A DNA stretch of 64,000 nt from a phage. The stretch lies in the sequence record PZ452610.1. The stretch is one strand, 5' to 3'. Below are positions 7,224 through 37,996 of the stretch, piece after piece (position 1 is the stretch's first letter; each line of letters begins with the position of its first letter). The position numbers and the translations under genes were made by a program. The notes under the pieces were generated by a model that worked only from the letters and a program-made list of their open reading frames with translations, did not search any database and had not been told where the DNA came from.

Positions 7224-8324
7224 TTACGCTGTGAAGATTTTATCCCACATCGCAACAACTGCATCTCGGTTATACTTCTTCCATACTGCTTCAGCACGTT
7301 TAACTCGAGCTTCGTATGTGTCAGTGAATTCTAATACAGCTTTTGTGTAAAGCGCAACTACTTCTTTCTTAGGAGTAGAGGAATCAATTTCTACACGCAC
7401 AGTATCTGGGTCGTATTCGAATGTCGCATGAGGATAATCCTTAAAAACTAACTGGATTACAGGGACACCTTTAGAGATGGCTTCAATAGAACTATTCTCT
7501 ACCGTACCTGTGTCAGGACACGTATTAATAAGTGCTTTAGCTGTTTTAAGACGTTCCATAATTTCACTGTGTGGAGCATCAATAATAACAGGATATTTAG
7601 CTGGTGGTGCCCATTTACTAGGACAGTATCCTGCACCATTTTCGCCTAGTGCTTTAATCGCTTCAAGAGCAACATCAGTACGACGCATTTTAGTGTCATA
7701 ACGTTGTGCACTAATAATCAGATCAGTCGCCGGAAGAACTTCAGGTTTCTCATTCAAACAAATAACCGGATAATCTTCGGCTTCAAACAACGGATTTGCT
7801 CGCCAATAATCATAATCAATTTTGTCAGTCAGACCTGAAGTCATATAACAATATTTACGTTCAAATTCACGGAAGGCTTTAGTAGGAGCATAACTCTTAC
7901 CACCATTCTTATGAATTTGAATAGTCTGGTCCCAAATTTGAACAATGCCACGAGATACCGGTTCAAACGGTGTTGCCATAAAATTCTTATGAACTTTAGA
8001 GAGACCTGCGTCTTTAATTGCCTGAACGGTTAGTTTAGTCGGTTCCATAGTAACAACGAAATCGTATTCATGGATGCCGGCTAGTTCAACAATCTTACGA
8101 GCCATAGTATAACTCATACCTAGACTGAATTTAGTCAGATGACCAACAGGATGATGATTAACCTTCCAATCACCAAATGTGTCATTATCAAAACCAATAT
8201 AATCAATATCGGCACCGATAGAAACTAAATATTTCAACACATTTAAATGTACTGCTTCAAGACCACCTTGTACACGGTCAGGATTAAATGGGACTGCACG
8301 AGATGGGATAAACATAACTTTCAT
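7224..8324 (-). CDS. putative GT-B fold glycosyltransferase (candidate DNA glycosyltransferase)
   Basis: 366 aa; C-terminal TGTVENSSIEAISKGVPVI resembles the GT4/GT-B donor-binding motif; sits where T4 has gene 60/mobA. Confidence 0.5.
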   Translation of the reverse strand: MKVMFIPSRAVPFNPDRVQGGLEAVHLNVLKYLVSIGADIDYIGFDNDTFGDWKVNHHPVGHLTKFSLGMSYTMARKIVELAGIHEYDFVVTMEPTKLTVQAIKDAGLSKVHKNFMATPFEPVSRGIVQIWDQTIQIHKNGGKSYAPTKAFREFERKYCYMTSGLTDKIDYDYWRANPLFEAEDYPVICLNEKPEVLPATDLIISAQRYDTKMRRTDVALEAIKALGENGAGYCPSKWAPPAKYPVIIDAPHSEIMERLKTAKALINTCPDTGTVENSSIEAISKGVPVIQLVFKDYPHATFEYDPDTVRVEIDSSTPKKEVVALYTKAVLEFTDTYEARVKRAEAVWKKYNRDAVVAMWDKIFTA

Positions 8325-8337
8325 AATTAAGCCTTAT

Positions 8338-8368
8338 TAAAATTAAAATGAAGCTCCCAAAGGAGCTT
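8338..8368 (-). terminator. hairpin plus U-rich tract after gene 39
   Basis: AAGCTCC/GGAGCTT 7-bp stem overlapping gene 39 stop, then cauuuuaauuuu. Confidence 0.4.
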
Positions 8369-10184
8369 AGGACATCCATTCTTTACGAAGTTCTGAATCA
8401 TCACCCAACAACATTTCAAAGAGTTCTTTCCAATTTTCAGGAAGTTTAACTACGTCGTACACAGGGTTCTGAATCATTTCACGATATTCTGACTTTTCAA
8501 GGGAGCCTAATCCCTTGATGTATCGAATACTATGCTTAGGCAGTGTATCTTTAACTTCTTCATACTCAGCTACAGTATAAAACCATTTTTGAGCTTTGCC
8601 AATTTGTGCAATAATTACAGGCGTTTTAACAAAGCGAATACGTCCTTGTTCAAACAATTCAGGCCAATTACTAAAGAAAGCAAGCAAAGCCGGATAGATA
8701 CTTCCAAGACCGTCGTGATCTGCATCAGTCATAATTGCAATATTACGATAGTTCGTATTCTCTGCCTTTTCACCAAGAATAAGACCTGTGATAGCACAGA
8801 TATCAAAGAGCTCTTTGTTCTTCATCATATCAGCATATGACATACCCCAGCTATTCATCACCTTACCACGTAATGGGAATCCGCCGTGTAGTTCACGGTC
8901 ACGAACATCAATGAGATAACCAATTGCAGAATCACCTTCTGTTAAGAACAATGTCGTATCTGCATCTTTACCACATTGGTTAGCTTTAATATGCTTATGA
9001 ACCTTAGCTTTAGTTGCCTTTTTAGCTGCTTTAGTTTCTGCAGCCTTTTCTGCTGCCAATTTACGAGCTAATGCTGCTTCAACAATAGGCATAATCAAGG
9101 CTTCGTTTTTAAGAAGTGCCTGAGCAATTTTCTTAGCATCTAATTGGATATGATTACGAATATCACCATACGTTGACGTTAAACGTTCTTTAGTCTGAGA
9201 ATCAAAACGCATGTTGCTCATGTCTCTAATAAACATCAACATTGTGAGGCATTCTTTAACACGAGCTTTAGTGACTTCAATACCCTTATATTTCTTTTTA
9301 ATACCCGGCAAAAGATGTTCGCAGATATCGTCCATTACACATTCAACATGATGACCACCATTTTTAGTATGGATGTTATTCACATAAGTTAAATGACGGA
9401 AGCCATCTGGTGATGTTGTGAATGCTATAGAGACTTTATCATTTTCTTGAATGATGTTATCTTCACCAAATTGTTTAGCAAATCGTTTAAAATTACCATC
9501 AACCTTTTTACCATTAAATGTGAACTTGATATCAGGATAAACGACTGCCAATGTTTGAAGTCGGTCTAAAGTAATATCTAAATAAATTTGAGATAAATTA
9601 TGCTCTTCAAATGAAGAGAAATCAGGAGTGAAGATTACTTTAGTGCCTTTACCTTTAGATTTCTTAGAAGACCATGATTTGTTTTCCATTCCGTTTGAAC
9701 AGTTAACAGTGATTTCATTTTCGCCATCTGACGTGATGCCTGTAAACAACGTAGAGAAGATATTAGTTAAACTACTCCCGACGCCGTTCATACCACCAGT
9801 CTTGCGTTCAGAATCATCGCCAAAGTTACCACCAGCTTTTGGAATAGTCCAGGCTGCTACAGGCCCAGGAATTTGTTCACCTGTTTGGTCGGTAACTAAA
9901 CCTTGAGGAATACCACGTCCGTTATCTTCCACCGAAACTTGATTATTTTTAATTTGCACATCAATTTTATTTGCAAACTTAAATGATGTACGAATAGCTT
10001 CATCAACCGAGTTGTCAATAATCTCATCGATTAATTTAACCAGACCAGGAACATATTCAACTTGTTGATATTTACCAAACAAAAAACGCTCGTGGGCTTC
10101 TTTGGCCGAAGAACCAATATACATGCCACTACGTTTCTTAATATGTTCTACATCTGACAGTACCTTAATTTCATTTTTAATCAT
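8367..10184 (-). CDS. 39: DNA topoisomerase II large subunit (GyrB-like), single 39+60 fused form
   Basis: 605 aa; MIKNEIKVLSDVEHIKKRSGMYIGS and IDNSVDEA GHKL motifs; length equals T4 gp39 plus gp60. Confidence 0.9.
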   Translation of the reverse strand: MIKNEIKVLSDVEHIKKRSGMYIGSSAKEAHERFLFGKYQQVEYVPGLVKLIDEIIDNSVDEAIRTSFKFANKIDVQIKNNQVSVEDNGRGIPQGLVTDQTGEQIPGPVAAWTIPKAGGNFGDDSERKTGGMNGVGSSLTNIFSTLFTGITSDGENEITVNCSNGMENKSWSSKKSKGKGTKVIFTPDFSSFEEHNLSQIYLDITLDRLQTLAVVYPDIKFTFNGKKVDGNFKRFAKQFGEDNIIQENDKVSIAFTTSPDGFRHLTYVNNIHTKNGGHHVECVMDDICEHLLPGIKKKYKGIEVTKARVKECLTMLMFIRDMSNMRFDSQTKERLTSTYGDIRNHIQLDAKKIAQALLKNEALIMPIVEAALARKLAAEKAAETKAAKKATKAKVHKHIKANQCGKDADTTLFLTEGDSAIGYLIDVRDRELHGGFPLRGKVMNSWGMSYADMMKNKELFDICAITGLILGEKAENTNYRNIAIMTDADHDGLGSIYPALLAFFSNWPELFEQGRIRFVKTPVIIAQIGKAQKWFYTVAEYEEVKDTLPKHSIRYIKGLGSLEKSEYREMIQNPVYDVVKLPENWKELFEMLLGDDSELRKEWMS

Positions 10185-13078: not shown

Positions 13079-13573
13079 TTAATTTAGAATATTAACCACA
13101 GCACTACGTGGAACTACACTAAAATCACCTGCATGAACAACGTTCAGAAGTTCAACACCGTCTTCAATCCACTGGTCAGTTACCCAGCCACTTACCGGTC
13201 CAGCGAATGGTCGACGAATTGAAACTGCTTTACACAACAAGTCTGTAGGCTCGATAGGTTTAACTAAAGTACCGTACATAGAAGCGATGTCCATATCAAA
13301 GTGGAGACCATCTTTAACAGGTGCTTCTCCAATCAACAGTTCAAAGTCGGTGCTTGGAAGGGCGGTAGTAGAAATTGTACCATATGAATTTTTAATTTCT
13401 AAGAATAACCAAGGGCCTTCAGCTTGTTTGATGAAGTTAACAATAGTGAAACTATTACCTTGAGTGGCACCTAAAATTTCACAAAACTTTTCATAAGCTC
13501 GCACTGAAGCACCGTACCAGTTGATTTGTTTTTCGTCTTTCAGGATGTAAGTGGCCGTAGTATTGATATTCAT
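13079..13573 (-). CDS. hypothetical protein, tandem paralog 3 (about 164 aa)
   Basis: C-terminal GWVTDQWIEDGVELLNVVHAGDF related to the two upstream ORFs; start moved to MNINTT because the track start overlaps the promoter. Confidence 0.5.
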   Translation of the reverse strand: MNINTTATYILKDEKQINWYGASVRAYEKFCEILGATQGNSFTIVNFIKQAEGPWLFLEIKNSYGTISTTALPSTDFELLIGEAPVKDGLHFDMDIASMYGTLVKPIEPTDLLCKAVSIRRPFAGPVSGWVTDQWIEDGVELLNVVHAGDFSVVPRSAVVNILN

Positions 13574-13603
13574 AATGGTTTCCAGTTTGGTTAAGATAGA
13601 AAG

Positions 13604-13633
13604 ATTATACTCCAACCATCCTTGGTTGTAAAC
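13604..13633 (-). promoter_or_regulatory. early-type promoter (repeated cassette copy)
   Basis: Minus strand GTTTAC-aaccaaggatggttggag-TATAAT; same cassette at 55614 and 56634. Confidence 0.5.
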
Positions 13634-13638
13634 TGTTT

Positions 13639-14316
13639 TTATCGCTGTTTTACACTTAACGGGTCAGGATTCTCAGGGACATCTTCAAGGCCAAGCGCAT
13701 AACGCTGAGCATATTTTAACATCAAAATATCTTTAGCACAATCATGAATACTATCATGGGCAACGAATCCTTTTAGCGTACCCATCGGTAATGGACACAT
13801 ACTTAATCCTCGTGTCAACGAGTAAGCTTCGATTGCTGTACGAATATCACGTTGAGCCCAGAATTTAACCGGTTCTAATTTATCAGTATCAATATCTGGT
13901 TCAAGAACACCTTCATCACGATAGAGGTCACGAATCAAATCGACCAAGATCGGGAAGTCAAAGCTCATACCACGGCACCACATCTGTGATTTCCATTGGT
14001 CAACTTTATTAGCTCGACAATAATCTAAAAAGATTTTAATGCCTTCAAGCGTAGTGACATCGTCTTCAGACGGAGCCAAGTTTTTACGTGCTTCAGCCGA
14101 TTGTTCTTTCCACCATTTCATAGTGGATTTAGCGAAAACTCGCTTCCCTTTCTGAGAAGCTAAATTAAATTTAATTCGCTTACCTCGTTGAACAAGTTCT
14201 TCAAATGATTCAACAACTTCAGGGTCGGAATTATATGCAATAACCGCAAGGTCAATAACAGCCGCTTTTGATGTATTGCCGAATGTTTCAAAGTCTATAA
14301 TAACATCAGTGCTCAT
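13639..14316 (-). CDS. dexA: exonuclease A (DEDDh 3'-5' exonuclease)
   Basis: 225 aa; N-terminal IIDFETFG Exo I motif; position between motB-like region and dda as in T4. Confidence 0.8.
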   Translation of the reverse strand: MSTDVIIDFETFGNTSKAAVIDLAVIAYNSDPEVVESFEELVQRGKRIKFNLASQKGKRVFAKSTMKWWKEQSAEARKNLAPSEDDVTTLEGIKIFLDYCRANKVDQWKSQMWCRGMSFDFPILVDLIRDLYRDEGVLEPDIDTDKLEPVKFWAQRDIRTAIEAYSLTRGLSMCPLPMGTLKGFVAHDSIHDCAKDILMLKYAQRYALGLEDVPENPDPLSVKQR

Positions 14317-14325
14317 AATTTTCTC

Positions 14326-15639
14326 TCAAATAAAATGGACGTCAAAACGACCACGAGTCGTGCCGACATACAATAACTGTTTAGCTAATTCTGAATCGGC
14401 ATAATGGATACACGGTGTATAAACAAAGGCCGTGTCAACAGACATACCCTGGGCCTTATGGAAGGTTGATACAGGTAGTGCCTTCACCTTAGTGAACATA
14501 CGTTTAGCATCCCAGAATTCGCTCCATGGAGCTTTACCGCCTTTATTCCAGAATTTATATGTTTCTGCGGTCTTAGCCAAAAACAAATTGAATTTATAAA
14601 GCTCTTCTTCAGAAGAAATAACCTTTATATCTTCACGGATGTATTCTTCATCATCACTATATGTTTCTACTGTAAGATTCCAGTATCGTATCATATATTC
14701 GCCTGAAACACCGCGTGCTTTAACGAATGTAGACGTTTCTACAGCATCTCGAATACGAACGAATTGCCCGTTATTGAAAAGCATTTCGGTCATATTTTTG
14801 CCATCTAGCTTATATGTCTTAGTAAATGGCTCTTGTAGAACAATGACTTCGTCTTTAATAAATGGCTTTTCTGTTTCGAGAAGTTTTCGGCGAATAATTG
14901 AATTTAACTTGTCCACCGACTTATTTGTGAATGCCATCATTCGATTTTCGAAAAGGTCTTCAGGAGTTTTAACGACGTTAAAATAGTTCATCATATACGA
15001 TTTAAGGTCTGTATATCCATGAACACCGTGCCCATCAACTACTTTATCGTAAATCCATTTGCCATTACGAATATCAGTCGCAACATCAATAATTGGCGCA
15101 TTGCTACGTTTAACTTCTGTAAGGTTGCATTGCACGAAGTCTTTGTGAGTGAAGAAAGGACTTAGATACGCAGTTGATTCGCCTGGGTCTACCGGACGAA
15201 TCTGGCATCGGTCGCCGATTCCAATTACTGTGCACCATTTAGGGATACTAGCTAACATTATTTTAAACAGAGGACGGTCGCACATTGACGCTTCATCAAA
15301 TAACAGTACACGACACAAGGCTAAGTCGGGAACCTTTTTCTGTTCAAACAATACGTTTTCTTCGTATGTAGTTGGGTTGATTTTAAGAATGCTATGAATA
15401 GTCGATGCTTCTTGACCCGCAAGTTTGCTTAGAACCTTTTTAGCAGCATGTGTAGGGGCTGCTAAAATAATACCTGATTCTCCGGCAGAAATAAGAGCTT
15501 CAACGATGAATCTAGTAAGGGTTGTTTTACCTGTACCAGCAGGCCCATTAATAGTTACGTGATGTTTCTTTTCTTTAATAGCGTTCATAACAACGTTGAA
15601 GGCGTTTTTCTGGCCTTCAGTCAAATCATCAAATGTCAT
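14326..15639 (-). CDS. dda: Dda DNA helicase (SF1)
   Basis: 437 aa; Walker A GPAGTGKTT; matches T4 Dda length and order. Confidence 0.9.
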   Translation of the reverse strand: MTFDDLTEGQKNAFNVVMNAIKEKKHHVTINGPAGTGKTTLTRFIVEALISAGESGIILAAPTHAAKKVLSKLAGQEASTIHSILKINPTTYEENVLFEQKKVPDLALCRVLLFDEASMCDRPLFKIMLASIPKWCTVIGIGDRCQIRPVDPGESTAYLSPFFTHKDFVQCNLTEVKRSNAPIIDVATDIRNGKWIYDKVVDGHGVHGYTDLKSYMMNYFNVVKTPEDLFENRMMAFTNKSVDKLNSIIRRKLLETEKPFIKDEVIVLQEPFTKTYKLDGKNMTEMLFNNGQFVRIRDAVETSTFVKARGVSGEYMIRYWNLTVETYSDDEEYIREDIKVISSEEELYKFNLFLAKTAETYKFWNKGGKAPWSEFWDAKRMFTKVKALPVSTFHKAQGMSVDTAFVYTPCIHYADSELAKQLLYVGTTRGRFDVHFI

Positions 15640-28694: not shown

Positions 28695-29243
28695 TTAACG
28701 AGCCCATTTGATGATTTCTGTAATCAAATCATTACGTTCGCTTGCATTAAATCCTATAACTTTGTTAGCACCATCATGATTAAGTAATTGATACGTTTGG
28801 ATTTTGTTATGAATTGCAAACTCTTCAAAATGTGAAATGACTGTATTAAAACCGAATGAAGACAAAGTGATAAGGTCGTCTTCAAAACTTTCAGTCATTT
28901 CGTTACGTGTTAAAATAATTGTGAACACATCATGGTTTTGGCAAAGACGAACATAATCCTGTTCATAAACGTCAAGAACCGAGTCCGCATCTTGTCGAAT
29001 ACGTCCATAAACCCAGTTACTAATATATCCACGGTCTAACAGATAAATCTTAGTAGGGTCTAAATAATTCAACATCGTTTCGAAACAGCCAACTTCATTT
29101 CGAGACTTAACATCGAAACGTCCATCAACTGTTCGTTTAGGGAAATCAATCTTTACATATCTTTCACTAATTTCCATTATGTCATTAATGAAAGTTGTTT
29201 TACCAGCATTATCCGGGCCATCTACTAAAATAATTTTAGCCAT
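28695..29243 (-). CDS. P-loop nucleotide kinase (thymidylate-kinase-like)
   Basis: 182 aa; Walker A VDGPDNAGKTT typical of Tmk/dNK-type kinases; occupies the T4 beta-gt neighbourhood. Confidence 0.5.
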   Translation of the reverse strand: MAKIILVDGPDNAGKTTFINDIMEISERYVKIDFPKRTVDGRFDVKSRNEVGCFETMLNYLDPTKIYLLDRGYISNWVYGRIRQDADSVLDVYEQDYVRLCQNHDVFTIILTRNEMTESFEDDLITLSSFGFNTVISHFEEFAIHNKIQTYQLLNHDGANKVIGFNASERNDLITEIIKWAR

Positions 29244-29244
29244 T

Positions 29245-30144
29245 TTATTCCTCGATTACGACATCTTCATATTTAGGTATATTATACGGTGAAGAAATTA
29301 AAGCATTAAAGTAGATGAACTCACCAAGACCTGGATGAAATACTTCTTCAGGATTTTCGAAATATTGAATCTTCGGACGTCCTTTAAGAATTTGATAGTA
29401 CTCAGTTTTAGTTGGTTTAAAAATTCGAATCAACGCTTCTTCAGGATACTTATTTCTGTCGAAGCTATTATTTGGATCGGTTATATAAAGCGGTTGACCT
29501 AATTGAATTGCGCATTCAACAACTTGTTCAAAACGATAGCATGGGTCACTAATTCGAAATGGATGAAAAATACCATCTAGATGAATAGGAGCCAAATCAC
29601 CTACAAGACGCTGCATGATGGAAGGACGTATAACTTTCTGCGTTACGATAATCTTATTACCATCTGCACCTGCGTTAACCAGCACTTCTTTTTGACGTTC
29701 ATTCAACACAGTAGTTTGAAGTGAACGATTAACCGACAACATATCAGTTTTTAAGAATTCGTCAATATAAAAACGTGGTTTATTAGGGTCTGCAGTGATA
29801 TTGAAATTGAATTCCACATCAAAAGCGCCGTCATATCCAGTGATATCTGTGATTAAAAAATCACAATCATAATAAGCAATTAATGAATCAACAACAAATT
29901 CATTTTCAGACCAGAAATATTTACGAGTGTTATACGCGTTATCTTTATACCATAATGGAACAAACTTAAATTCTGGAAAAAGACGTTCGCATTCTTTAAT
30001 ATCAGATGCATTACGTGGATATGTAATCACATCACCCGGATTAGCACGGTGCAAATGAAGTTGGAAGTTGCCATCCTTAAGGATAGCATACTGTCCAGTT
30101 TCATAAGACCGCATACTCAAGATTGGTACGCGGAAAATAGCCAT
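29245..30144 (-). CDS. hypothetical protein (299 aa); positional replacement of beta-gt, possible GT-A-like DxD motif
   Basis: ORF track; LIAYYDCDFLITD resembles hydrophobic strand + DxD; not similar to T4 beta-gt. Confidence 0.5.
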   Translation of the reverse strand: MAIFRVPILSMRSYETGQYAILKDGNFQLHLHRANPGDVITYPRNASDIKECERLFPEFKFVPLWYKDNAYNTRKYFWSENEFVVDSLIAYYDCDFLITDITGYDGAFDVEFNFNITADPNKPRFYIDEFLKTDMLSVNRSLQTTVLNERQKEVLVNAGADGNKIIVTQKVIRPSIMQRLVGDLAPIHLDGIFHPFRISDPCYRFEQVVECAIQLGQPLYITDPNNSFDRNKYPEEALIRIFKPTKTEYYQILKGRPKIQYFENPEEVFHPGLGEFIYFNALISSPYNIPKYEDVVIEE

Positions 30145-30860
30145 TAGTCAAGGAATCCTTTAACATAATCAAAATCACGTTCAAACACATGGGCACTTAC
30201 CATGGTATGAGTATAATCACCAACTTCTACCCCACATTCGTTAGCGATATAATGAAGTAATTTTCCTTGGAGATAAAAATCCAACTGCATAACAACAGCA
30301 CAGTTCTGAGAACGCATATGACAGTGGGTATAAAGCTTACCATCACGAATATAATAAGTCACTGAGTCAGTACATGGATATTCAAGCGTTTCGTCCGAAT
30401 CAAGCAAAGCCTGATCAGAACTTTCTAGAATTTGGAACACAACTCTTCGAGAGTTAGGCTTCTCTTTAAGTTCTTTTAGAAGAGCTGGTAATTGGGCCGC
30501 AATGCGAGGACCATAGAAAGTGTTGAAGTTCGCCGGCAAAACATCTGATTTTGGTTTAGAAATAAATTTAGCGACATTAGGATATGCCTTAAACGCTTCT
30601 TCTGCGTTGGTACCACCAGAAATCATAAACTTCCAGAAGTCTTCGGCATATTCATAAGAGATGCGGTTAATACGTGGGTCGGTCATTTTGAATGATGATG
30701 GAGTGTCAACAACTACTGTCATAGACCCAATTTCATTACAACGTCCAATACGAGAATCAGTTACGAATTCCGGGTTTTCTAAAATTTCACGATTGACTGC
30801 TTTAAATGCGGTTTGAAAATCTGCGGCTTTGATATATTTCATTGTGTTATGTTTTCCCAT
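30144..30860 (-). CDS. 42: dCMP hydroxymethylase (thymidylate synthase family)
   Basis: 238 aa; catalytic Cys in EYPCTDS; T4 position. Confidence 0.85.
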   Translation of the reverse strand: MGKHNTMKYIKAADFQTAFKAVNREILENPEFVTDSRIGRCNEIGSMTVVVDTPSSFKMTDPRINRISYEYAEDFWKFMISGGTNAEEAFKAYPNVAKFISKPKSDVLPANFNTFYGPRIAAQLPALLKELKEKPNSRRVVFQILESSDQALLDSDETLEYPCTDSVTYYIRDGKLYTHCHMRSQNCAVVMQLDFYLQGKLLHYIANECGVEVGDYTHTMVSAHVFERDFDYVKGFLD

Positions 30861-30879: not shown

Positions 30880-30903
30880 ATTATATACTCAATTCGTAAA
30901 GCT
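30880..30903 (-). promoter_or_regulatory. MotA-box-like middle promoter upstream of gene 42
   Basis: Minus strand AGCTTTA, 11 bp, TATAAT. Confidence 0.35.
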
Positions 30904-31142
30904 TATTTGAATTTCTTGACAATGTTGATATAACGTAAAGCTTCAGCATCGATACTTCCAAGAACACTATGAAGAAATGCATCAGCGTAGTATTCCAATT
31001 GAACAGGTTCTTTAATCACTTTAGCCGCTTTAGTTTCAAACAGGCCCATCAGGGCCTTTTTAAGAATTTGTTCGTTGCTGTTAATTTTCATAGTCAAAAT
31101 CTCTTCATTAAGTTGGTGGTTAAAAGTTTTTCTAGAAATCAT
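30903..31142 (-). CDS. hypothetical protein (79 aa)
   Basis: ORF track; ATGA-coupled to upstream 386-aa ORF. Confidence 0.45.
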   Translation of the reverse strand: MISRKTFNHQLNEEILTMKINSNEQILKKALMGLFETKAAKVIKEPVQLEYYADAFLHSVLGSIDAEALRYINIVKKFK

Positions 31143-32299
31143 TCCGGGTACCTCAAAGCGTCATCAGAGTTAGTTATATCAATAATAGATATAGAGTTTT
31201 CTGCTAACCCGTTTTTAGATAATTGACGTTTATAATATCTTTCACAATATGTACACGTCGTCCCGCAGATTTCATTAGCACAATCGAAATCTGGATGTCT
31301 GAACCACCTTTTTTCTAAAAAGCCATCTAACAAAGAGGTTTCAATATTTACTGTATGTGAAAACTCAGTTTCGTTTTCAAGAGTGAAAATAGTCTCTAAA
31401 GGCTTCCACAGTTCTAACAAATTACCTTCAAACTTTTCAGAAGCGTATGCTTCAAGAACTTTCAAAATGTAGTCTGTGCTACCTGTACGTCCTGAAACTT
31501 TGAATTGAGTGATACCAATATCATTATAAAGTTTCAAATCTTGAGGACGAACAAAACGAGTTCTCAACCAGTTAAATGGGTCTGTATCACGAGCTTTAAT
31601 ACAGTGCTGCATAGGATATCCGTTTAAGGATTTAGCATCATCAGCTGTAACATCAGTACTATGGAAAATATAGCAAGAGTCACGATAGCTACAATGTGTT
31701 GTATACCCTTTACCAGCATTAGAACAGAACTCATTTACAAGAACTTCAAATATTATATTGTTCTTATTGCAAAACTCTGCTGCACGCTTCAGGAAAGAAA
31801 CTGAACGGTTCTTATGAATTCCACAGCAGACCTTTTTGATATTATACTGGTCATGCAAGTATTTGATTTGAGTTACAGCATCGACATGTAGAATTGTTGA
31901 AACTTCAATCTCAATGTCTTTATTGACTTCACGAACAATTTCCATAACAACAGGGTTAGCGATAGTAATACGCCATACGCCTATTGACCAAAGATACTGA
32001 ACATAATCCTGAATAGCTTTCTTCTTCCACCCAACTAGTTCTCTTTTTGAACCAGGATTTATCGTGTTGAGTGTATAGTTAAAGCAAATACCTAATTCGT
32101 TACAACGTTTAACGTAATCTTCTAACATCTTTTTGTCAACGTCAGGAAGCCTAAAATCAGGTCTGGCTGCTACAAAAGCCATTTCTCTTGTAGAGCCGTA
32201 TACTTCGTTTATCAAGCTATTAGGATAAGTTTTATTGAGCTCTACGATTTTATCAAGAAGAGCTAAATCAAAATTCGTTCCAATTTTAAAAGTATTCAT
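31139..32299 (-). CDS. hypothetical protein (386 aa) with C-terminal Cys cluster, part of sugar cassette
   Basis: Track start is GTG; first in-frame ATG at 32297-32299; C-terminal CANEICGTTCTYC plus internal EFCSNAGKGYTTHCSYRDSC. Confidence 0.55.
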   Translation of the reverse strand: MNTFKIGTNFDLALLDKIVELNKTYPNSLINEVYGSTREMAFVAARPDFRLPDVDKKMLEDYVKRCNELGICFNYTLNTINPGSKRELVGWKKKAIQDYVQYLWSIGVWRITIANPVVMEIVREVNKDIEIEVSTILHVDAVTQIKYLHDQYNIKKVCCGIHKNRSVSFLKRAAEFCNKNNIIFEVLVNEFCSNAGKGYTTHCSYRDSCYIFHSTDVTADDAKSLNGYPMQHCIKARDTDPFNWLRTRFVRPQDLKLYNDIGITQFKVSGRTGSTDYILKVLEAYASEKFEGNLLELWKPLETIFTLENETEFSHTVNIETSLLDGFLEKRWFRHPDFDCANEICGTTCTYCERYYKRQLSKNGLAENSISIIDITNSDDALRYPE

Positions 32300-32355
32300 T
32301 TTTTTGCATCTCACGTTAATTGATGCGATGGTTTTTGCAGGTCTTACTTAAATTA

Positions 32356-32742
32356 TTATAGATTCGGTTTATATGATTTAAATGTTTCGAATTCGCCTTT
32401 ATTCATAAGAGCTTTGAATTCGTCAGGACGCATAGCTTTGTCGTCGATAATCCAATCATATACTGGTTTATGTGTTAGCAAATTATGGTACTTCAAACCA
32501 ATGTTTTCCAAGTTCTGAATCAGACTTGGGAGAATGTCAATTGCTATACGACCAGGACCTACTGACTTCATACCGCGAGCAGTGTAAAGCGTTATGGTAT
32601 GCCCTGCATCATACAGGGCATTAATAGCAGTCACCATTTCGACGTCTGGTTTGAAGTTCACGTAATCACGATTGTTATTCCACTCTGTTATACAATCATC
32701 GACATCAAAACAAAGATTAAGCATGTTTTCTACACGGTGCAT
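32356..32742 (-). CDS. HAD-superfamily phosphatase (small)
   Basis: FDVDDCITEW is HAD motif I (DxD); TAATG overlap with upstream gene stop. Confidence 0.55.
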   Translation of the reverse strand: MHRVENMLNLCFDVDDCITEWNNNRDYVNFKPDVEMVTAINALYDAGHTITLYTARGMKSVGPGRIAIDILPSLIQNLENIGLKYHNLLTHKPVYDWIIDDKAMRPDEFKALMNKGEFETFKSYKPNL

Positions 32743-34427
32743 TAGATTCGTTCCCATTGATGAGTGATATCGCCACCGATTGGACGATAAGAAACACCAG
32801 TTTCTTTATCAGTTAGTACCCATTTACCAGGATTTTTTGTAATCAGAGTAGCCGTTACAGGTTCTGCTACGTCATAACTAATAGAGCCGTCCTGAAGTAC
32901 ACGGCCCATGTTACGTAATTGCTTAGTCAGAAGTTCCATACCTTTATAATATGCGGCTACCGCTTTAAGTGGATTATTCTTGAAATAACCACCTAATGCA
33001 ATCCAGATAATTGCTACAGCCAAATGATGATACTCGTTAAACGAACTCATCTTTCCATATTTGTAAACTAATGGATTGATGTTAATAGTCACATTACAAG
33101 TTGTTTCGTCAATAGTAAACTGTCCCCAGGTCGGATTAGCGTTGAATTCATCATAACCTGAAACAGCATAAAGCACTTTAGCTTCATCATACAATTTTGG
33201 CCCGTAAATCTTGGTTTCGCCAAAATATCCACGAGGGTCGATAAACTTGACTTCGCCGTTATCAGTAATCATAGTATTACTGAAGTTCGGGTCACCGTGA
33301 ATAACAGAGTACTGTCCCTGAGAACGGGTATGATAACGAATAAGATGTTCTAAAGCTTGCTTCAGCATTGGCTTCAGACGTCCAATCTTAGTGTAGTTCA
33401 CGTGTGTGATTTTACCAAATGAATCAATCAATGGCTGAATGCTTTCACAACGATCAATAACTTTCGTATAGAACTCTTTAGTGAAATCACGGCGAACAGT
33501 TTCAGGACTTACAAAATAAGTGTCTGTGCTGAATTTCAGTGCATCTAAAATTGCATCAACAATTTGTGGACGAGCAAGACTTGATTTGGATTTAATATAT
33601 TCAAATGCTGGCTTACCTTTAATACGTTCCATTTCAAAATTATTTTCATTTACCGAAACTAACTGAGGAACTGAATCTGATTTCACTTTCAAATACCATG
33701 AAATCTCATCTTTTTGAAGAGCTCGACCTTGTTCGGTTAACGCGAATTTAGTTACAGTTTCTTCGCCAATTTCAACTGCATTAAAACTACGATTAAGTTC
33801 ACGAACTTCATGAGCTTTTTCAAGTTTAGGCATATCACCTAAATCAATTAGATTCATAAGCTCTGATTTATTGAATGCACTGCCGTAAAGGAATTCTACG
33901 AAATCACGTCCTTTGCAGTATTCATGAATTTCCTCATCAGTAGAACCCATGTAGAATTCCCAGTCTTTGAACTGATAAATTCCTACAACATTACCGCCTG
34001 TTGAACCTACGTTAGTGATATTTTCACCATCGAAATTATATCGACATTCATCACCCTTAACATAGATTGCGTTAACATTCCAAGACCATGAACCAAAATC
34101 AGGAATAATATCACACCAGTTAACAATTACGTTATGGCCATCTAAATCTTTGTATAATTTAGCAAGAGCATAAGCAGAACCATACGCTTCATCAACTGTA
34201 CGAATAGTCACATTGAACCCTTCTTGCTCGCAATAAGCTCGAACAGTTTCAGCAAATTTTGAATGAACTACTACAATAATTTCATCTGCGCCAAGGTCAG
34301 AATAAATTGTATACAAATTGCTCAGAATAGTGTCTTGTTTATAGTTAACAAGAACTTTTGGAATATGATGCGTTATTGGATACAAACGAGTTGCCAGTCC
34401 AGCACCAAGAATAACAGCTTTTTTCAT
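32742..34427 (-). CDS. bifunctional sugar-1-phosphate nucleotidylyltransferase / APH-like sugar kinase
   Basis: 561 aa; N-terminal VILGAGLATRLYPITHHIPKVLV (RmlA/GalU/MurU-type NTase); C-terminal HGDPNFSNTMI...KFIDPRG (APH/choline-kinase-like catalytic loop). Confidence 0.7.
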   Translation of the reverse strand: MKKAVILGAGLATRLYPITHHIPKVLVNYKQDTILSNLYTIYSDLGADEIIVVVHSKFAETVRAYCEQEGFNVTIRTVDEAYGSAYALAKLYKDLDGHNVIVNWCDIIPDFGSWSWNVNAIYVKGDECRYNFDGENITNVGSTGGNVVGIYQFKDWEFYMGSTDEEIHEYCKGRDFVEFLYGSAFNKSELMNLIDLGDMPKLEKAHEVRELNRSFNAVEIGEETVTKFALTEQGRALQKDEISWYLKVKSDSVPQLVSVNENNFEMERIKGKPAFEYIKSKSSLARPQIVDAILDALKFSTDTYFVSPETVRRDFTKEFYTKVIDRCESIQPLIDSFGKITHVNYTKIGRLKPMLKQALEHLIRYHTRSQGQYSVIHGDPNFSNTMITDNGEVKFIDPRGYFGETKIYGPKLYDEAKVLYAVSGYDEFNANPTWGQFTIDETTCNVTININPLVYKYGKMSSFNEYHHLAVAIIWIALGGYFKNNPLKAVAAYYKGMELLTKQLRNMGRVLQDGSISYDVAEPVTATLITKNPGKWVLTDKETGVSYRPIGGDITHQWERI

Positions 34428-34468
34428 GTTGTGGTCCTCATTGGTAAGTAGGTGTATTGTACACTATT

Positions 34469-34612
34469 CTAGTTAAAGCATTCATACTTTGCTTGTAGTC
34501 CAATCATAATCCATCCAATTACAAGTGTTGGAATCATTACTGGAGCCGTTAAGCTCCAGTAGATAGTCATGACAAGCATCAATAGTAAAAGTCCTATTGT
34601 TATTGCTTTCAT
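34469..34612 (-). CDS. small membrane protein (47 aa)
   Basis: Sub-threshold ORF MKAITIGLLLLMLVMTIYWSL...; ATGA overlap with SIS gene stop. Confidence 0.35.
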   Translation of the reverse strand: MKAITIGLLLLMLVMTIYWSLTAPVMIPTLVIGWIMIGLQAKYECFN

Positions 34613-35244
34613 TGTTCGCCTCGTAACATGGCACCTAGTGCACCGCCTGGATGGAACTTAAGAAAGTCATTAGAGGTAAATCCACGTTCAGACGAAAGGT
34701 TGATAGCAAACGTATCGATAAGCGCTAACAACAATGTAGTGGACATAGTCGGAGCCAGAGAATTCTCATCAACCTCTACCGCGATGCCTGTACAGAAAGA
34801 GTAATCAAAAAGGGCTTCATTTTCTTGCGGAATGTCTGGGTTACAATGCAACAGAATCTGTTTGACATTTGGACGAATCATTTTAAGATGCTTAGCCACG
34901 CCTATCATTTCTTCAGTCTTACCAGAACGACTAATATGAATCAACACATCATTAGGCGCAATGAATCCTGCATCACCGTGAGAATAATGCCCAGTGTTCA
35001 AGTACATACTCGGGATACCGAGTGAAGCAAATGTCTCAGAAGCTTTAGTTGCAATATTAGCATTCTTACCAACACCTGTAATAATTACTCGGCTTTCATA
35101 ATTACTAAGTCCAGGGCGTCGAAGAGTTTCTAGAATAGCATTATAACGAGCAGGGTTTTGACTAATTACTTTGGCCATAGCGGCCAAAGAAGAAGCTTGT
35201 TTTATGATTGCGTCAATAGCGATAGTAATAGGAGTAGTTTTCAT
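34609..35244 (-). CDS. SIS-domain sugar-phosphate isomerase (KdsD/GutQ-like arabinose-5-phosphate isomerase, no CBS domains)
   Basis: 211 aa; GVGKNANIATK...HGDAGFI...LIHISRSGKTEE...FHPGGALG parallels the KdsD SIS domain. Confidence 0.7.
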   Translation of the reverse strand: MKTTPITIAIDAIIKQASSLAAMAKVISQNPARYNAILETLRRPGLSNYESRVIITGVGKNANIATKASETFASLGIPSMYLNTGHYSHGDAGFIAPNDVLIHISRSGKTEEMIGVAKHLKMIRPNVKQILLHCNPDIPQENEALFDYSFCTGIAVEVDENSLAPTMSTTLLLALIDTFAINLSSERGFTSNDFLKFHPGGALGAMLRGEQ

Positions 35245-35284: not shown

Positions 35285-37996
35285 TCAAAAATCGAACATA
35301 TCGAACAGAGATGCTTTCTTCTCGTAATCGAGTTTCGCTGCTGATGTGAATCCTTCAAGTGGTTTAATAAATGTCTTCTCAAGGAGAACAGTGTAGTCCA
35401 TCCAATGAAGTACGTCATCTTTAATTAAATCTGTGATTTCAGTACCAGAAGGCCATGCGATACATTTATCACCGAACGGGTTTCCTTCACGTAAAGGCAG
35501 AACATATACTTTTTCACCTTCTACAACTTGTGGAGCATCAATATTACCTTTGATAGCTCTGTTATATGTCAGAATTCCACGAATATGGAACGGACATTTA
35601 GGACCAGGGAATCCACCTACATCATATTTAGCAATGTTATTCGCAGAAGATACCGACGCGATGCTAATATAATTCAATTGACGGAATTCTTTTTCAAACT
35701 CTTTAAAATATTCTTGTAATGATTCTTCACCTTCTTGAAGCATACGACGAATACATTCTTTAAGAGCTTTCTGTACTGCTTTAGGGGTCGAAGATTTCTG
35801 AGTCTCTAGACCCATGATTTTGAGTTTAGGCTCAGCGTAACGAGTACCTTCCATATCCCACACGTTTAATGCGTAACGTTTCTTACCAGTCCAGAATCCA
35901 CCAATACCTTTAGAACCGAGCGGAGGACCAGCGATAGCTTCTCGGTCCATGAACATTAAGTGTTGTTTATTGTTCATGTATTCACACATTTCACGGAAAC
36001 CTCTATCAATAGCAGGTTCCATACGTTCACGAGCGAACTTATCTAAGAAGTCTACCCAATGGTTGGTATCACGGAATTTAGATTCACCAACCTTATCGAT
36101 AATTTTATCAGCAGATACGTAAATAGAGTCTGTATCACCATAAAGAACGAAAGCTTCACCTTCTGTACCACAAACTTCGTTCAGATATTCATTAACTTTA
36201 CGTTCAATCCACTGTAAAGCCATTTGACCAAATGTTGTGATTGCAGTAGCATTACGCAAATCGTAATAACGGAACCAAACGTTGCCAAGTGCACCATAAA
36301 GTGAGTTGATAAGCAATTTACGGTTAATTTGTGCAGTCATACCTGCAACTTCAGTACGTTGAGCTCTAAACAACATTTCATTAAGAGATTTAGCAGACAA
36401 CTTTTTAATCTTTTCTTTAATCTCGTCAGTGAAGTCGAAACGATAATCAACATCTAATGGTTCGTCAACAGAAAGATTAGGATTATGCAACGCCTCTTTA
36501 ATTATTTCACCATTACGTTGAGCCGCAAGCATATAACCTTTATGTTCTTTACGTTGATTAAAGACCTTAGTGATTTCAGTTGGAACTACACCATCACGGT
36601 CTTTATAATACATCATGCCATTAGGAGAACAACTGTACACATCTGAAGGACGTTCAGCGATTGCGTTAATATAATCATGCAGTGGAGCTACTTTAAACGT
36701 TCCTGCTATTGTTTCCGGGCTAATATTCACTTGGCGAATAATACTTGGATACAGAGATGTAAGGTCGAAACTCATTACATATTTGTATCGATTTGGAATA
36801 GGTTCCTTAACAAAAGCGCCAGGATAAGGTTGAACCGGGTGAGAACGACCTTGTGGAATCACCTTGTTCTGCTCTTTAAGGCTATTAAAAATAATAGCAT
36901 CCCATGTTTTAATTGGGCTAAACACAGATTGAATCTGTATCTTAGCATAATAACCCATGTCCAAACTCAAGTTGATGAACTGACGCTTAGCATCAATTTG
37001 CAATACACGATACACGTCGATAATGTTATAAGAAATATATCGTTGGTGATTGCTTTCACGAAGCTTAGAAATAGGGCCGTCATATTTCAGTTTACCAACG
37101 TTCAATTCAAATTCTGAAATGTAATCTAGAGAATACGACGGTTGATTGGTAAAAGAGAATTTTTTGTAAAGGTCGATATAATCAAGAACAGAGATACCGA
37201 ACAATGTAATGATTTCACGAGAACCATACATGTTTTCGATAACTTTAACACGAGTTTTACGATGCGGTGATAAACGTTTCGCAGTAGATTCGCCAAAAAT
37301 ATTCTTGATTCGGTTATACACATATGGAATATCAAATGACTCAACGTTCCATCCAGTCAAAATGACAGGAGTTTTCTGTTGCCAGAAGTTGAGATATTCC
37401 ATCAACAATTCTTTTTCGTTATCGAACGGCATATAAATGATTTTATCGATAATTTCAGATGGAACTTCATCACCGCCTTGTTCTTGAAGCTTAGCAGCGA
37501 TTTCAATAGACCATTCTTCTACATTACCATATGGAGAATTCAATAGATCAAATACGTAGAACCTGTCGTCAATTGAGTCATAATGGGTGATAGCATCAAT
37601 CGGATGTTTTGCTTGTGATGGCTCAGGGAACCCATCCGGAGATGTTACTTCGATGTCGAAGTTAGCCACACGAATTTTTGTATGGTCGTATTTGATTTCA
37701 TAGTTATAAGTGTCAGACAAATACGCCAATTTGAAATCGTCCATGCCAAGTGCTTCAAGTCCGATATCTTCCATGCGTTTAATCCATTGGGAGGCATCAC
37801 GCATATTAGCGAACAACTTACGAGTACACGGCTTACCGTAGATATCGAAATATTTCGTAGCCTGACTTTCCGGACAATGAGCAAACAGTGATGGTTTATA
37901 TTCTACTTCACGAGTACGTTCACGGCCATTAGAATCGATGTAACGTTCAAAAATTGAATCACCAATCTGTTCAACCGTTAAGTAAAATTCTTTCAT
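35285..37996 (-). CDS. 43: DNA polymerase (family B) with 3'-5' exonuclease
   Basis: 903 aa; near-colinear with T4 gp43 (MKEFY..., FDIE, YGDTDS motifs). Confidence 0.95.
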   Translation of the reverse strand: MKEFYLTVEQIGDSIFERYIDSNGRERTREVEYKPSLFAHCPESQATKYFDIYGKPCTRKLFANMRDASQWIKRMEDIGLEALGMDDFKLAYLSDTYNYEIKYDHTKIRVANFDIEVTSPDGFPEPSQAKHPIDAITHYDSIDDRFYVFDLLNSPYGNVEEWSIEIAAKLQEQGGDEVPSEIIDKIIYMPFDNEKELLMEYLNFWQQKTPVILTGWNVESFDIPYVYNRIKNIFGESTAKRLSPHRKTRVKVIENMYGSREIITLFGISVLDYIDLYKKFSFTNQPSYSLDYISEFELNVGKLKYDGPISKLRESNHQRYISYNIIDVYRVLQIDAKRQFINLSLDMGYYAKIQIQSVFSPIKTWDAIIFNSLKEQNKVIPQGRSHPVQPYPGAFVKEPIPNRYKYVMSFDLTSLYPSIIRQVNISPETIAGTFKVAPLHDYINAIAERPSDVYSCSPNGMMYYKDRDGVVPTEITKVFNQRKEHKGYMLAAQRNGEIIKEALHNPNLSVDEPLDVDYRFDFTDEIKEKIKKLSAKSLNEMLFRAQRTEVAGMTAQINRKLLINSLYGALGNVWFRYYDLRNATAITTFGQMALQWIERKVNEYLNEVCGTEGEAFVLYGDTDSIYVSADKIIDKVGESKFRDTNHWVDFLDKFARERMEPAIDRGFREMCEYMNNKQHLMFMDREAIAGPPLGSKGIGGFWTGKKRYALNVWDMEGTRYAEPKLKIMGLETQKSSTPKAVQKALKECIRRMLQEGEESLQEYFKEFEKEFRQLNYISIASVSSANNIAKYDVGGFPGPKCPFHIRGILTYNRAIKGNIDAPQVVEGEKVYVLPLREGNPFGDKCIAWPSGTEITDLIKDDVLHWMDYTVLLEKTFIKPLEGFTSAAKLDYEKKASLFDMFDF

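Follow-up and report, generated by a model that had tools for sequence, protein, structure and literature searches.

A U32-family, putative iron-sulphur protein in the arabinosyl-5-hydroxycytosine gene cluster of an RB69-type phage: a candidate anaerobic pyrimidine hydroxylase

The gene cluster considered here lies at 30903-35244 in a 64,000-nucleotide stretch of phage DNA (record PZ452610.1; the window, meaning the whole stretch that was analysed) and includes a gene for a protein of the Peptidase U32 family. The closest described systems are the gp45-gp55 cluster of phage RB69 and the Afh cluster of phage HY126 (Thomas et al. 2018, Mahler et al. 2025, He et al. 2026, Lee et al. 2026), for which the window has matching genes in matching order and nothing material different. 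The modified bases of RB69 are mono- and di-arabinosyl-5-hydroxycytosine, ether-linked according to nuclear magnetic resonance (NMR) and mass spectrometry (MS) data, and gp48 makes 5-hydroxy-deoxycytidine monophosphate (5-hydroxy-dCMP) with flavin, the oxygen atom coming from O2 as judged by 18O2 labelling (PMC13326640). Arabinosylated 5-hydroxycytosine has been demonstrated in virion DNA of RB69 and of Mosigvirus NP, and the assignment in 2018 of the base as arabinosyl-5-hydroxymethylcytosine (arabinosyl-hmC) is now held to be erroneous (PMC13326640, PMC13390438). Thomas et al. 2018 (PMC6024577) reported that RB69 DNA contains arabinose and nominated ORF53_52c and ORF055c for uridine diphosphate (UDP)-arabinose synthesis, and Lee et al. 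2026 (PMC13326640) proposed a route from ribulose-5-phosphate to UDP-arabinofuranose by way of gp55, gp52:53 and gp51. In phage HY126, to the extent that He et al. 2026 is reported in PMC13326640, arabinose-5-phosphate is converted to arabinofuranose-1,5-bisphosphate by the AfhE kinase, this to arabinofuranose-1-phosphate by the AfhF phosphatase, and this in turn to UDP-arabinofuranose by the AfhE nucleotidylyltransferase. A role as base-proximal arabinosyltransferase has been proposed for gp46:47, which has a GT-B fold (PMC13326640), and an arabinosyltransferase role for gp3 (PMC6024577, PMC13326640). The system of phage T4, with gp42 and the alpha- and beta-glucosyltransferases, is alike in that dCMP is modified before replication and a sugar is placed on the DNA, and the two have a common genomic neighbourhood, but T4 makes hmC with folate where the RB69-type cluster makes 5-hydroxycytosine with flavin and O2, and the RB69-type donor is UDP-arabinofuranose. 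The host makes no UDP-arabinofuranose and therefore the phage must synthesise the donor.

For the U32 protein the nearest characterised relatives are cellular. RlhA, TrhP and UbiU/V are U32 Fe-S proteins that carry out O2-independent hydroxylations, at C5 or on a ring; prephenate is needed by RlhA (ho5C2501 in 23S ribosomal RNA) and TrhP (ho5U34 in transfer RNA) and is the oxygen donor for UbiU/V, and in Escherichia coli O2-dependent and O2-independent routes are paired, as TrhO with TrhP and UbiIHF with UbiUV (PMC5727448, PMC6599085, 10.1101/587956, PMC10990095).

The region in the window is very probably an RB69-type (Mosigvirus) cluster for arabinosyl-5-hydroxycytosine DNA. As a nucleotide-sugar pathway the cassette is already published, being the RB69/HY126 pathway, so that it adds nothing new and the remaining value lies in the U32 module. 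Known U32 enzymes perform prephenate-dependent, O2-independent hydroxylation, and an anaerobic route to 5-hydroxycytosine is therefore proposed for gp50; there is about an even chance that the U32 proteins of the gp50 type, which form a widespread phage subfamily, hydroxylate C5 of pyrimidines in DNA precursors without O2 and in dependence on prephenate. The RB69/HY126 pathway bears on how phages withstand restriction and CRISPR systems, and on the sequencing and engineering of therapeutic Mosigviruses. An anaerobic cytosine hydroxylase, if that is what the U32 protein is, would explain the full DNA modification of these gut phages without O2, would be the first member of the U32 family with a place in DNA metabolism, and would point to hundreds of uncultured phages whose DNA probably carries glycosylated hydroxypyrimidines. 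It would also provide a small, soluble and highly conserved model for prephenate-dependent hydroxylation, which to our knowledge has so far never been reconstituted in vitro.

The cluster and its relation to RB69

A preliminary description of the window had reported six co-oriented open reading frames (ORFs) at 30903-35244. They were found exactly as claimed, all on the minus strand, and the motifs quoted for them (GVGKN, HGDAGFI, ISRSGKTEE, FHPGGALG, FDVDDC, VILGAGLATRLYPIT, HGDPNFSNTMI and IDPRG) are all present in the translations. The cassette is flanked by DNA polymerase on one side and by a ThyA-superfamily protein on the other, and together with the associated genes it comprises the following features.

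7227-8324, minus strand: second predicted arabinosyltransferase, RB69 ORF003c/gp3 ortholog (tblastn 99.7% over 366 amino acids)
28695-29243, minus strand: thymidylate-kinase-like nucleotide kinase, RB69 gp45 (phrog_761, E=2e-45; 99.5% identical to gp45)
29245-30144, minus strand: predicted base-proximal DNA arabinosyltransferase, 299 amino acids, RB69 gp46:47 (phrog_3891)
30144-30860, minus strand: ThyA-superfamily 5-hydroxy-dCMP synthase, RB69 gp48 (99.2% identical)
30903-31142, minus strand: ORF of 79 amino acids, RB69 gp49 (phrog_8601), its start overlapping the U32 stop by 4 nucleotides
31139-32299, minus strand: Peptidase-U32-family, putative Fe-S protein, 386 amino acids, RB69 gp50 (PF01136)
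32356-32757, minus strand: small HAD phosphatase, 133 amino acids, RB69 gp51, AfhF type (FDVDDC; TIGR01689, phrog_1238)
32742-34427, minus strand: N-terminal nucleotidylyltransferase and C-terminal APH/choline-kinase-fold kinase, 561 amino acids, AfhE type, equivalent to RB69 gp52:53
34469-34612, minus strand: hydrophobic ORF of 47 amino acids, RB69 gp54 ortholog (phrog_3610)
34609-35244, minus strand: predicted SIS-only arabinose-5-phosphate isomerase, 211 amino acids, RB69 gp55 ortholog (PF01380, TIGR00393, phrog_5670)
35285-37996: DNA polymerase

E. coli O157 typing phages 3, 6 and 13 carry the cassette DNA at 100% identity and RB69 (Mosigvirus) at 98.4% over 4424 nucleotides, and approximately 150 Mosigvirus records reach at least 95% identity. 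The encoded proteins are 97.5-100% identical to RB69 gp45-gp55, and the orthologs are kept in order between gene 43 (DNA polymerase) and uvsX, matching the annotated RB69 synteny. The suggestion of a donor-synthesis arm serving sugar hypermodification of DNA is borne out by these identities, and the comparison with RB69 identifies the cassette as the RB69 pathway itself. Profile searches likewise agree with the assignments to the SIS, HAD and NTP_transferase families, the kinase fold being recovered by a weak match only.

The gene next to the cassette had been taken for gene 42, an hmC-forming dCMP hydroxymethylase; its product is 99% identical to RB69 gp48, the 5-hydroxy-dCMP synthase (PMC13326640), and approximately 98% identical to PDB entries 9iqc/9ir2/9iqu (E=8e-161), and carries the motif MRSQNCAVVMQLD. 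The D169N and N177D signature (E. coli ThyA numbering) is present in ungapped register, a mapping that depends on the alignment as MAFFT puts a 2-residue gap there. In the base arm of the pathway, known from RB69, the ThyA homolog hydroxylates dCMP with flavin and O2, and the glycosyltransferases at 29245-30144 (99-100% identical to RB69 ORF047c+046c) and 7227-8324 would move the sugar onto 5-hydroxycytosine; the glycosyltransferase roles, like the isomerase step of the donor arm, are inferred by homology.

The U32 protein, its distribution and proposed role

The U32 ORF spans 391 amino acids from a GTG at 32314, or 386 from the ATG at 32299, where its homologs begin. The protein matches PF01136 with E=7.5e-11 and 42.2 bits against a gathering score of 22.4, its AlphaFold (AF2) model has a predicted local distance difference test (pLDDT) score of 93.8, and the best fold match of this model in the PDB is 5d88, a U32 protein (Foldseek E=1e-6, TM(target) 0.71). 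Alignment to E. coli RlhA by hhalign gave 84% probability (E=7e-6, 203 columns), and searches of the PDB with the sequence and with a profile gave no meaningful match. It is the most conserved protein of the cluster, being 83% and 79% identical to its orthologs in Erwinia and Shewanella phages, compared with 75 and 71% for DNA polymerase, 72 and 54% for the AfhE type and 60 and 48% for the glycosyltransferase. A database search returned 268 homologs and an exhaustive profile search (E at most 1e-30) delimited a subfamily that falls into 491 clusters at 50% identity. In a set of 121 sequences, the most distant at 47% identity, ten cysteines vary little or not at all, and across 123 remoter representatives at 23-46% identity seven are retained in 94% or more; in the latter set C197, C208 and C238 are 99-100% conserved, a C-terminal CX4CX3CX2C motif 94-95%, and C214 and C163 about 60%. 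With RlhA, TrhP, UbiU and UbiV the protein shares the U32 domain, the TIM-barrel fold and conserved cysteines, and with RlhA also a 'C-Y-x2-H' segment; further points of likeness are that the pathway around gp50 yields a C5-hydroxylated pyrimidine and that there is a genomic link to prephenate supply. It differs in being only 17-23% identical to them and of a distinct subfamily, in its additional C-terminal CX4CX3CX2C motif and non-canonical spacing of the domain cysteines, and in its presumed substrate, a deoxynucleotide or DNA as opposed to RNA or a quinone.

None of the 57 Acinetobacter phage records with the AfhE type has U32, and both U32 and gp49 are lacking in phage DLP3, the DNA of which is tri-arabinosylated, and in phage JS10, which has the rest of the cluster. 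The pair is therefore not needed for arabinosylation or donor synthesis, so that the earlier placing of the 386-residue Cys-rich protein and the 79-residue ORF in the sugar cassette could not be upheld, and the two appear to belong to the base-hydroxylation arm. A rule by which U32 would occur only where the host is a facultative anaerobe was considered and turned out to be half true, as Dhakaviruses of E. coli such as JS10 are also without U32.

In 56 phage records the U32 gene and the ThyA homolog are separated by a gene for a CM_2 chorismate mutase. The records are from phages of Klebsiella, Serratia (including LC53 and 92A1), Yersinia, Enterobacter, Proteus, Erwinia, Providencia, Edwardsiella, Pectobacterium, Kosakonia, Morganella and Shewanella, and from E. 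coli phage EcS1. The phage CM_2 domains scored 44.6 and 32.8 bits in Pfam, where the threshold is 27, and residues R11, R28, K39, E52, S84 and Q88 of the E. coli enzyme EcCM are invariant in the phage chorismate mutases. In phage Thanatos-2 the U32-chorismate mutase pair has been relocated together and follows the nucleotide kinase instead of preceding the ThyA homolog. The product of chorismate mutase is prephenate.

The mechanism proposed on this basis is that the U32 protein, with its coupled 79-residue partner, would be a second hydroxylase and not a sugar enzyme, supplying 5-hydroxy-dCMP (or 5-hydroxycytosine) in an anaerobic host from either dCMP or cytosine in DNA. A second, anaerobic hydroxylase would parallel the TrhO/TrhP and UbiIHF/UbiUV pairs of E. 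coli, and in RB69-like phages it would back up the O2- and flavin-dependent 5-hydroxy-dCMP synthase in the anoxic gut. A parallel may also be drawn with the aerobic and anaerobic ribonucleotide reductases which RB69-like phages possess side by side. Where chorismate mutase or DAHP synthase is encoded, as in some phages, the supply of the oxygen donor would be greater, and in uncultured phages with a glycosyltransferase-U32 pair and no ThyA homolog nearby U32 may be the only hydroxylase feeding DNA glycosylation.

Ten distinct metagenomic phage loci of 13-21 kb each were examined. They have low GC content and encode Pol III alpha and RecA, and genes for a holin, a terminase or Mu F occur in some. 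The ORF directly upstream of U32 is in six of the ten a homolog of the gp46:47 glycosyltransferase (profile E=5e-18 to 7e-30), and a profile of ThyA-type hydroxylases gave no match in any of the ten. Locus L012 has in order a glycosyltransferase homolog, a gene resembling the SIS isomerase, a fusion resembling AfhE (28% identical over 522 amino acids), U32, DAHP synthase (237 bits, KDO8P synthase giving 63 bits) and an RmlD-like gene. In L014 a TAGT DNA glycosyltransferase lies immediately downstream of U32, together with a dUTPase-like gene, and UDP-galactopyranose mutase is near. In L014, L015, L021, L022 and L023 U32 is paired with a glycosyltransferase and replication genes without AfhE-type genes, and in other loci it stands beside a dCMP deaminase, a thymidylate kinase or a replicative polymerase. 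To judge from gene order, this pattern is what would be expected if U32 and the ThyA homolog were alternative suppliers of the hydroxylated base for the glycosyltransferase.

The 79-residue gp49, which belongs to a small family of its own, may assist the U32 protein as an accessory factor; in Yersinia phage TG1 and Serratia phage 92A1 homologs of it lie downstream of the U32 gene. The idea that it is a decayed chorismate mutase was rejected; it has no CM_2 match in Pfam even at E of at most 1, and TG1 and 92A1 have a gp49-like ORF in addition to a separate, true chorismate mutase. The chorismate mutase of Virsaitis27/CHI14 has a 40-residue N-terminal extension (L002 7158-7280) that opens with M-x-R-x-x-NH-x-x-NE, like the N-terminus of gp49; the extension might be what is left of a fusion between gp49 and chorismate mutase, though the similarity is very short. 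A promoter-like TTTAAA-16-TATAAT occurs at 32382-32355 of the window (minus strand), at the end of the HAD gene and just upstream of the U32 start, a hint that U32 and gp49 may have a transcript of their own.

Two further observations were made on the genes around U32 in uncultured phages. Radical SAM genes, often with SPASM domains, recur within a few genes of U32, and it is conceivable that their products are activating or electron-transfer partners of the U32 protein. They were located as follows.

L009, 1-249: radical SAM gene
L010, 12160-13185: radical SAM gene
L015, 5980-7011: radical SAM gene
L022, 7972-9000: radical SAM gene
L024, 2681-3628: radical SAM gene

Locus L010 also has two divergent U32 paralogs (8001-9098 and 13227-14360; 23% identity to each other's family) in a nucleoside salvage and modification island with an NT5C nucleotidase, a nicotinamide mononucleotide (NMN) transporter, a deoxynucleoside kinase and a nucleoside deoxyribosyltransferase.

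Alternative explanations

An important consideration in assigning hydroxylase activity to gp50 is the number of observations that weigh against it. The assignment is drawn from sequence, predicted fold and gene context. The canonical CX6CX15CX3-4C spacing of the four [4Fe-4S] cysteine ligands of U32 proteins is not exactly reproduced, and in the MAFFT alignment the second cysteine is missing. E. coli Dhakaviruses such as JS10 are without the module despite having a facultatively anaerobic host, and the window phage itself is without a chorismate mutase, so that prephenate would have to come from PheA/TyrA of the host. The ten metagenomic loci are partial contigs, so that a ThyA homolog could lie elsewhere on them. 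In the literature searched gp49 and gp50 go without discussion, gp50 being only listed as a 'sugar or heterocycle reductase' in a table of PMC13326640. In the full text of the literature searched no paper was found that ties U32 or chorismate mutase to RB69, arabinosyl or 5-hydroxycytosine; He et al. 2026 and Mahler et al. 2025 lay outside that search and may assign or exclude a role for gp50.

The competing explanations have been judged against the same body of evidence. The preliminary description saw a donor arm for arabinosyl-hmC beside a dCMP hydroxymethylase, a free-arabinose route and a sugar cassette that included the Cys-rich protein, and whilst the enzyme families fit this, Thomas et al. 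2018 described arabinosyl-hmC and proposed these genes (PMC6024577), and Table 1 of PMC13326640 still describes gp51 and the kinase domain in terms of free arabinose, it is now improbable. The NMR, MS and 18O2 data give an ether link to 5-hydroxycytosine, the published base being its mono- or di-arabinosyl form, and gp48 makes 5-hydroxy-dCMP (PMC13326640), the hmC assignment is termed erroneous (PMC13390438), and the DLP3 DNA and JS10 cluster described above are both without the Cys-rich protein. The order from arabinose-5-phosphate through free pentose to pentose-1-phosphate has been one published guess, whereas the AfhE/AfhF biochemistry of HY126, as relayed in PMC13326640, backs the 1,5-bisphosphate route. 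A role for the U32 protein as a redox or epimerase-type enzyme on a sugar or sugar nucleotide is unlikely. It would suit the reductase label mentioned above and the 'predicted epimerase' among the cluster genes in PMC13390438, the position of the gene between the HAD phosphatase and the hydroxylase, its company of sugar genes in L012 and a TIM-barrel fold whose structural neighbours, at low TM-score, include many sugar enzymes, but arabinosylation proceeds without U32 in Acinetobacter phages, the Dhakavirus cluster has none, and no characterised U32 member acts on sugars. Nor have chorismate mutase and DAHP synthase, to which U32 is linked, any role in pentose chemistry, and five of the metagenomic loci pair U32 with a glycosyltransferase and replication genes where there is no AfhE-type gene.

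It has also to be asked whether U32, with chorismate mutase in the relatives, hydroxylates U34 of host transfer RNA, C2501 of 23S ribosomal RNA or ubiquinone precursors and so reprograms the host, for every characterised U32 hydroxylation pathway targets RNA or quinones. There is, though, little probability of this, since hosts already encode RlhA, TrhP and UbiU/V, the U32 gene of cultured phages is always within the cytosine-modification cluster, and in metagenomic loci it adjoins the DNA-base glycosyltransferase homolog, dCMP deaminase, thymidylate kinase or replicative polymerase. That the protein is a protease is hardly credible: the Pfam family name and the annotation 'peptidase' or 'collagenase-like protease' in many GenBank records speak for it, but the near-universal cysteines point to metal or Fe-S binding, the family has since been re-interpreted as Fe-S hydroxylases, and a nucleotide-modification cluster gives a protease no rationale.

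Donor synthesis and minor features of the region

The product of 34609-35244 is 100% identical to RB69 gp55 and matches PF01380 (E=1e-10) and, in its SIS part only, the KpsF/GutQ model TIGR00393 (E=2e-32). With the KdsD model NF008141 it scores E=7e-31 and 107.7 bits against an equivalog cut-off of 505, being matched only at model positions 47-202 of 328 and having no C-terminal CBS pair. It thus has the SIS catalytic domain in common with E. coli KdsD/GutQ but differs in its length of only 211 amino acids, the missing CBS pair and a score under the equivalog cut-off, and homology suggests a SIS-only variant acting as an arabinose-5-phosphate isomerase on ribulose-5-phosphate. Shewanella phage Thanatos-2 (L003) and phage JS10 (L007) are without a phage SIS isomerase and presumably draw arabinose-5-phosphate from host KdsD/GutQ.

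The 561-residue fusion is 99-100% identical to RB69 ORF053c+052c. Its N-terminal part matches NTP_transferase PF00483 at residues 3-99 (E=1e-9), with PF00483 and PF12804 both falling within residues 3-107, the kinase-fold matches at residues 354-409 are weak, and the fusion matches PDB 1jyk with E=2e-5; its function is assigned because of the biochemistry of HY126 AfhE insofar as this is cited in PMC13326640. The HAD phosphatase, 97.7% identical to RB69 gp51, has the DxD motif FDVDDC and matches the capsule-biosynthesis phosphatase model TIGR01689 (E=2e-13), and its start may be the ATG at 32742 instead. In the donor arm so constituted, which follows the published route, the isomerase would pull ribulose-5-phosphate into D-arabinose-5-phosphate, the C-terminal kinase domain of the fusion would phosphorylate C1 to give arabinofuranose-1,5-bisphosphate, the phosphatase would take off the 5-phosphate to leave arabinofuranose-1-phosphate, and the N-terminal nucleotidylyltransferase domain would yield UDP-arabinofuranose.

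The gene junctions in the cassette measure -4, +41, -16 (or -1), +41, -4 and +42 nucleotides, and the three overlaps among the six are consistent with translational coupling. The base composition of the cassette bears no sign of a recently acquired island, and a promoter and terminator scan of 28.5-38.2 kb gave counts not above those of shuffled controls. The 47-residue ORF at 34469-34612, which overlaps the isomerase stop codon by 4 nucleotides, has no Pfam or NCBIfam match. The RB69 record labels gp54 'similar to T4 42-imm intercistronic region'. An imm gene is found at this junction in phage JS10, and the ORF is probably a remnant of the imm region. The RB69 reference (NC_004928.1) splits ORF053c/052c and ORF047c/046c, which has been attributed to sequencing errors (PMC6024577, PMC13326640), and the single intact ORFs of 561 and 299 amino acids in the window support that view. 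Homing endonuclease genes have been inserted inside the cassette of some relatives; in Erwinia phage Virsaitis27 a Seg-like gene (L002 5352-5990) lies between the HAD phosphatase and U32 genes, and phage NRG-P0074 has a homing endonuclease gene within the cassette.

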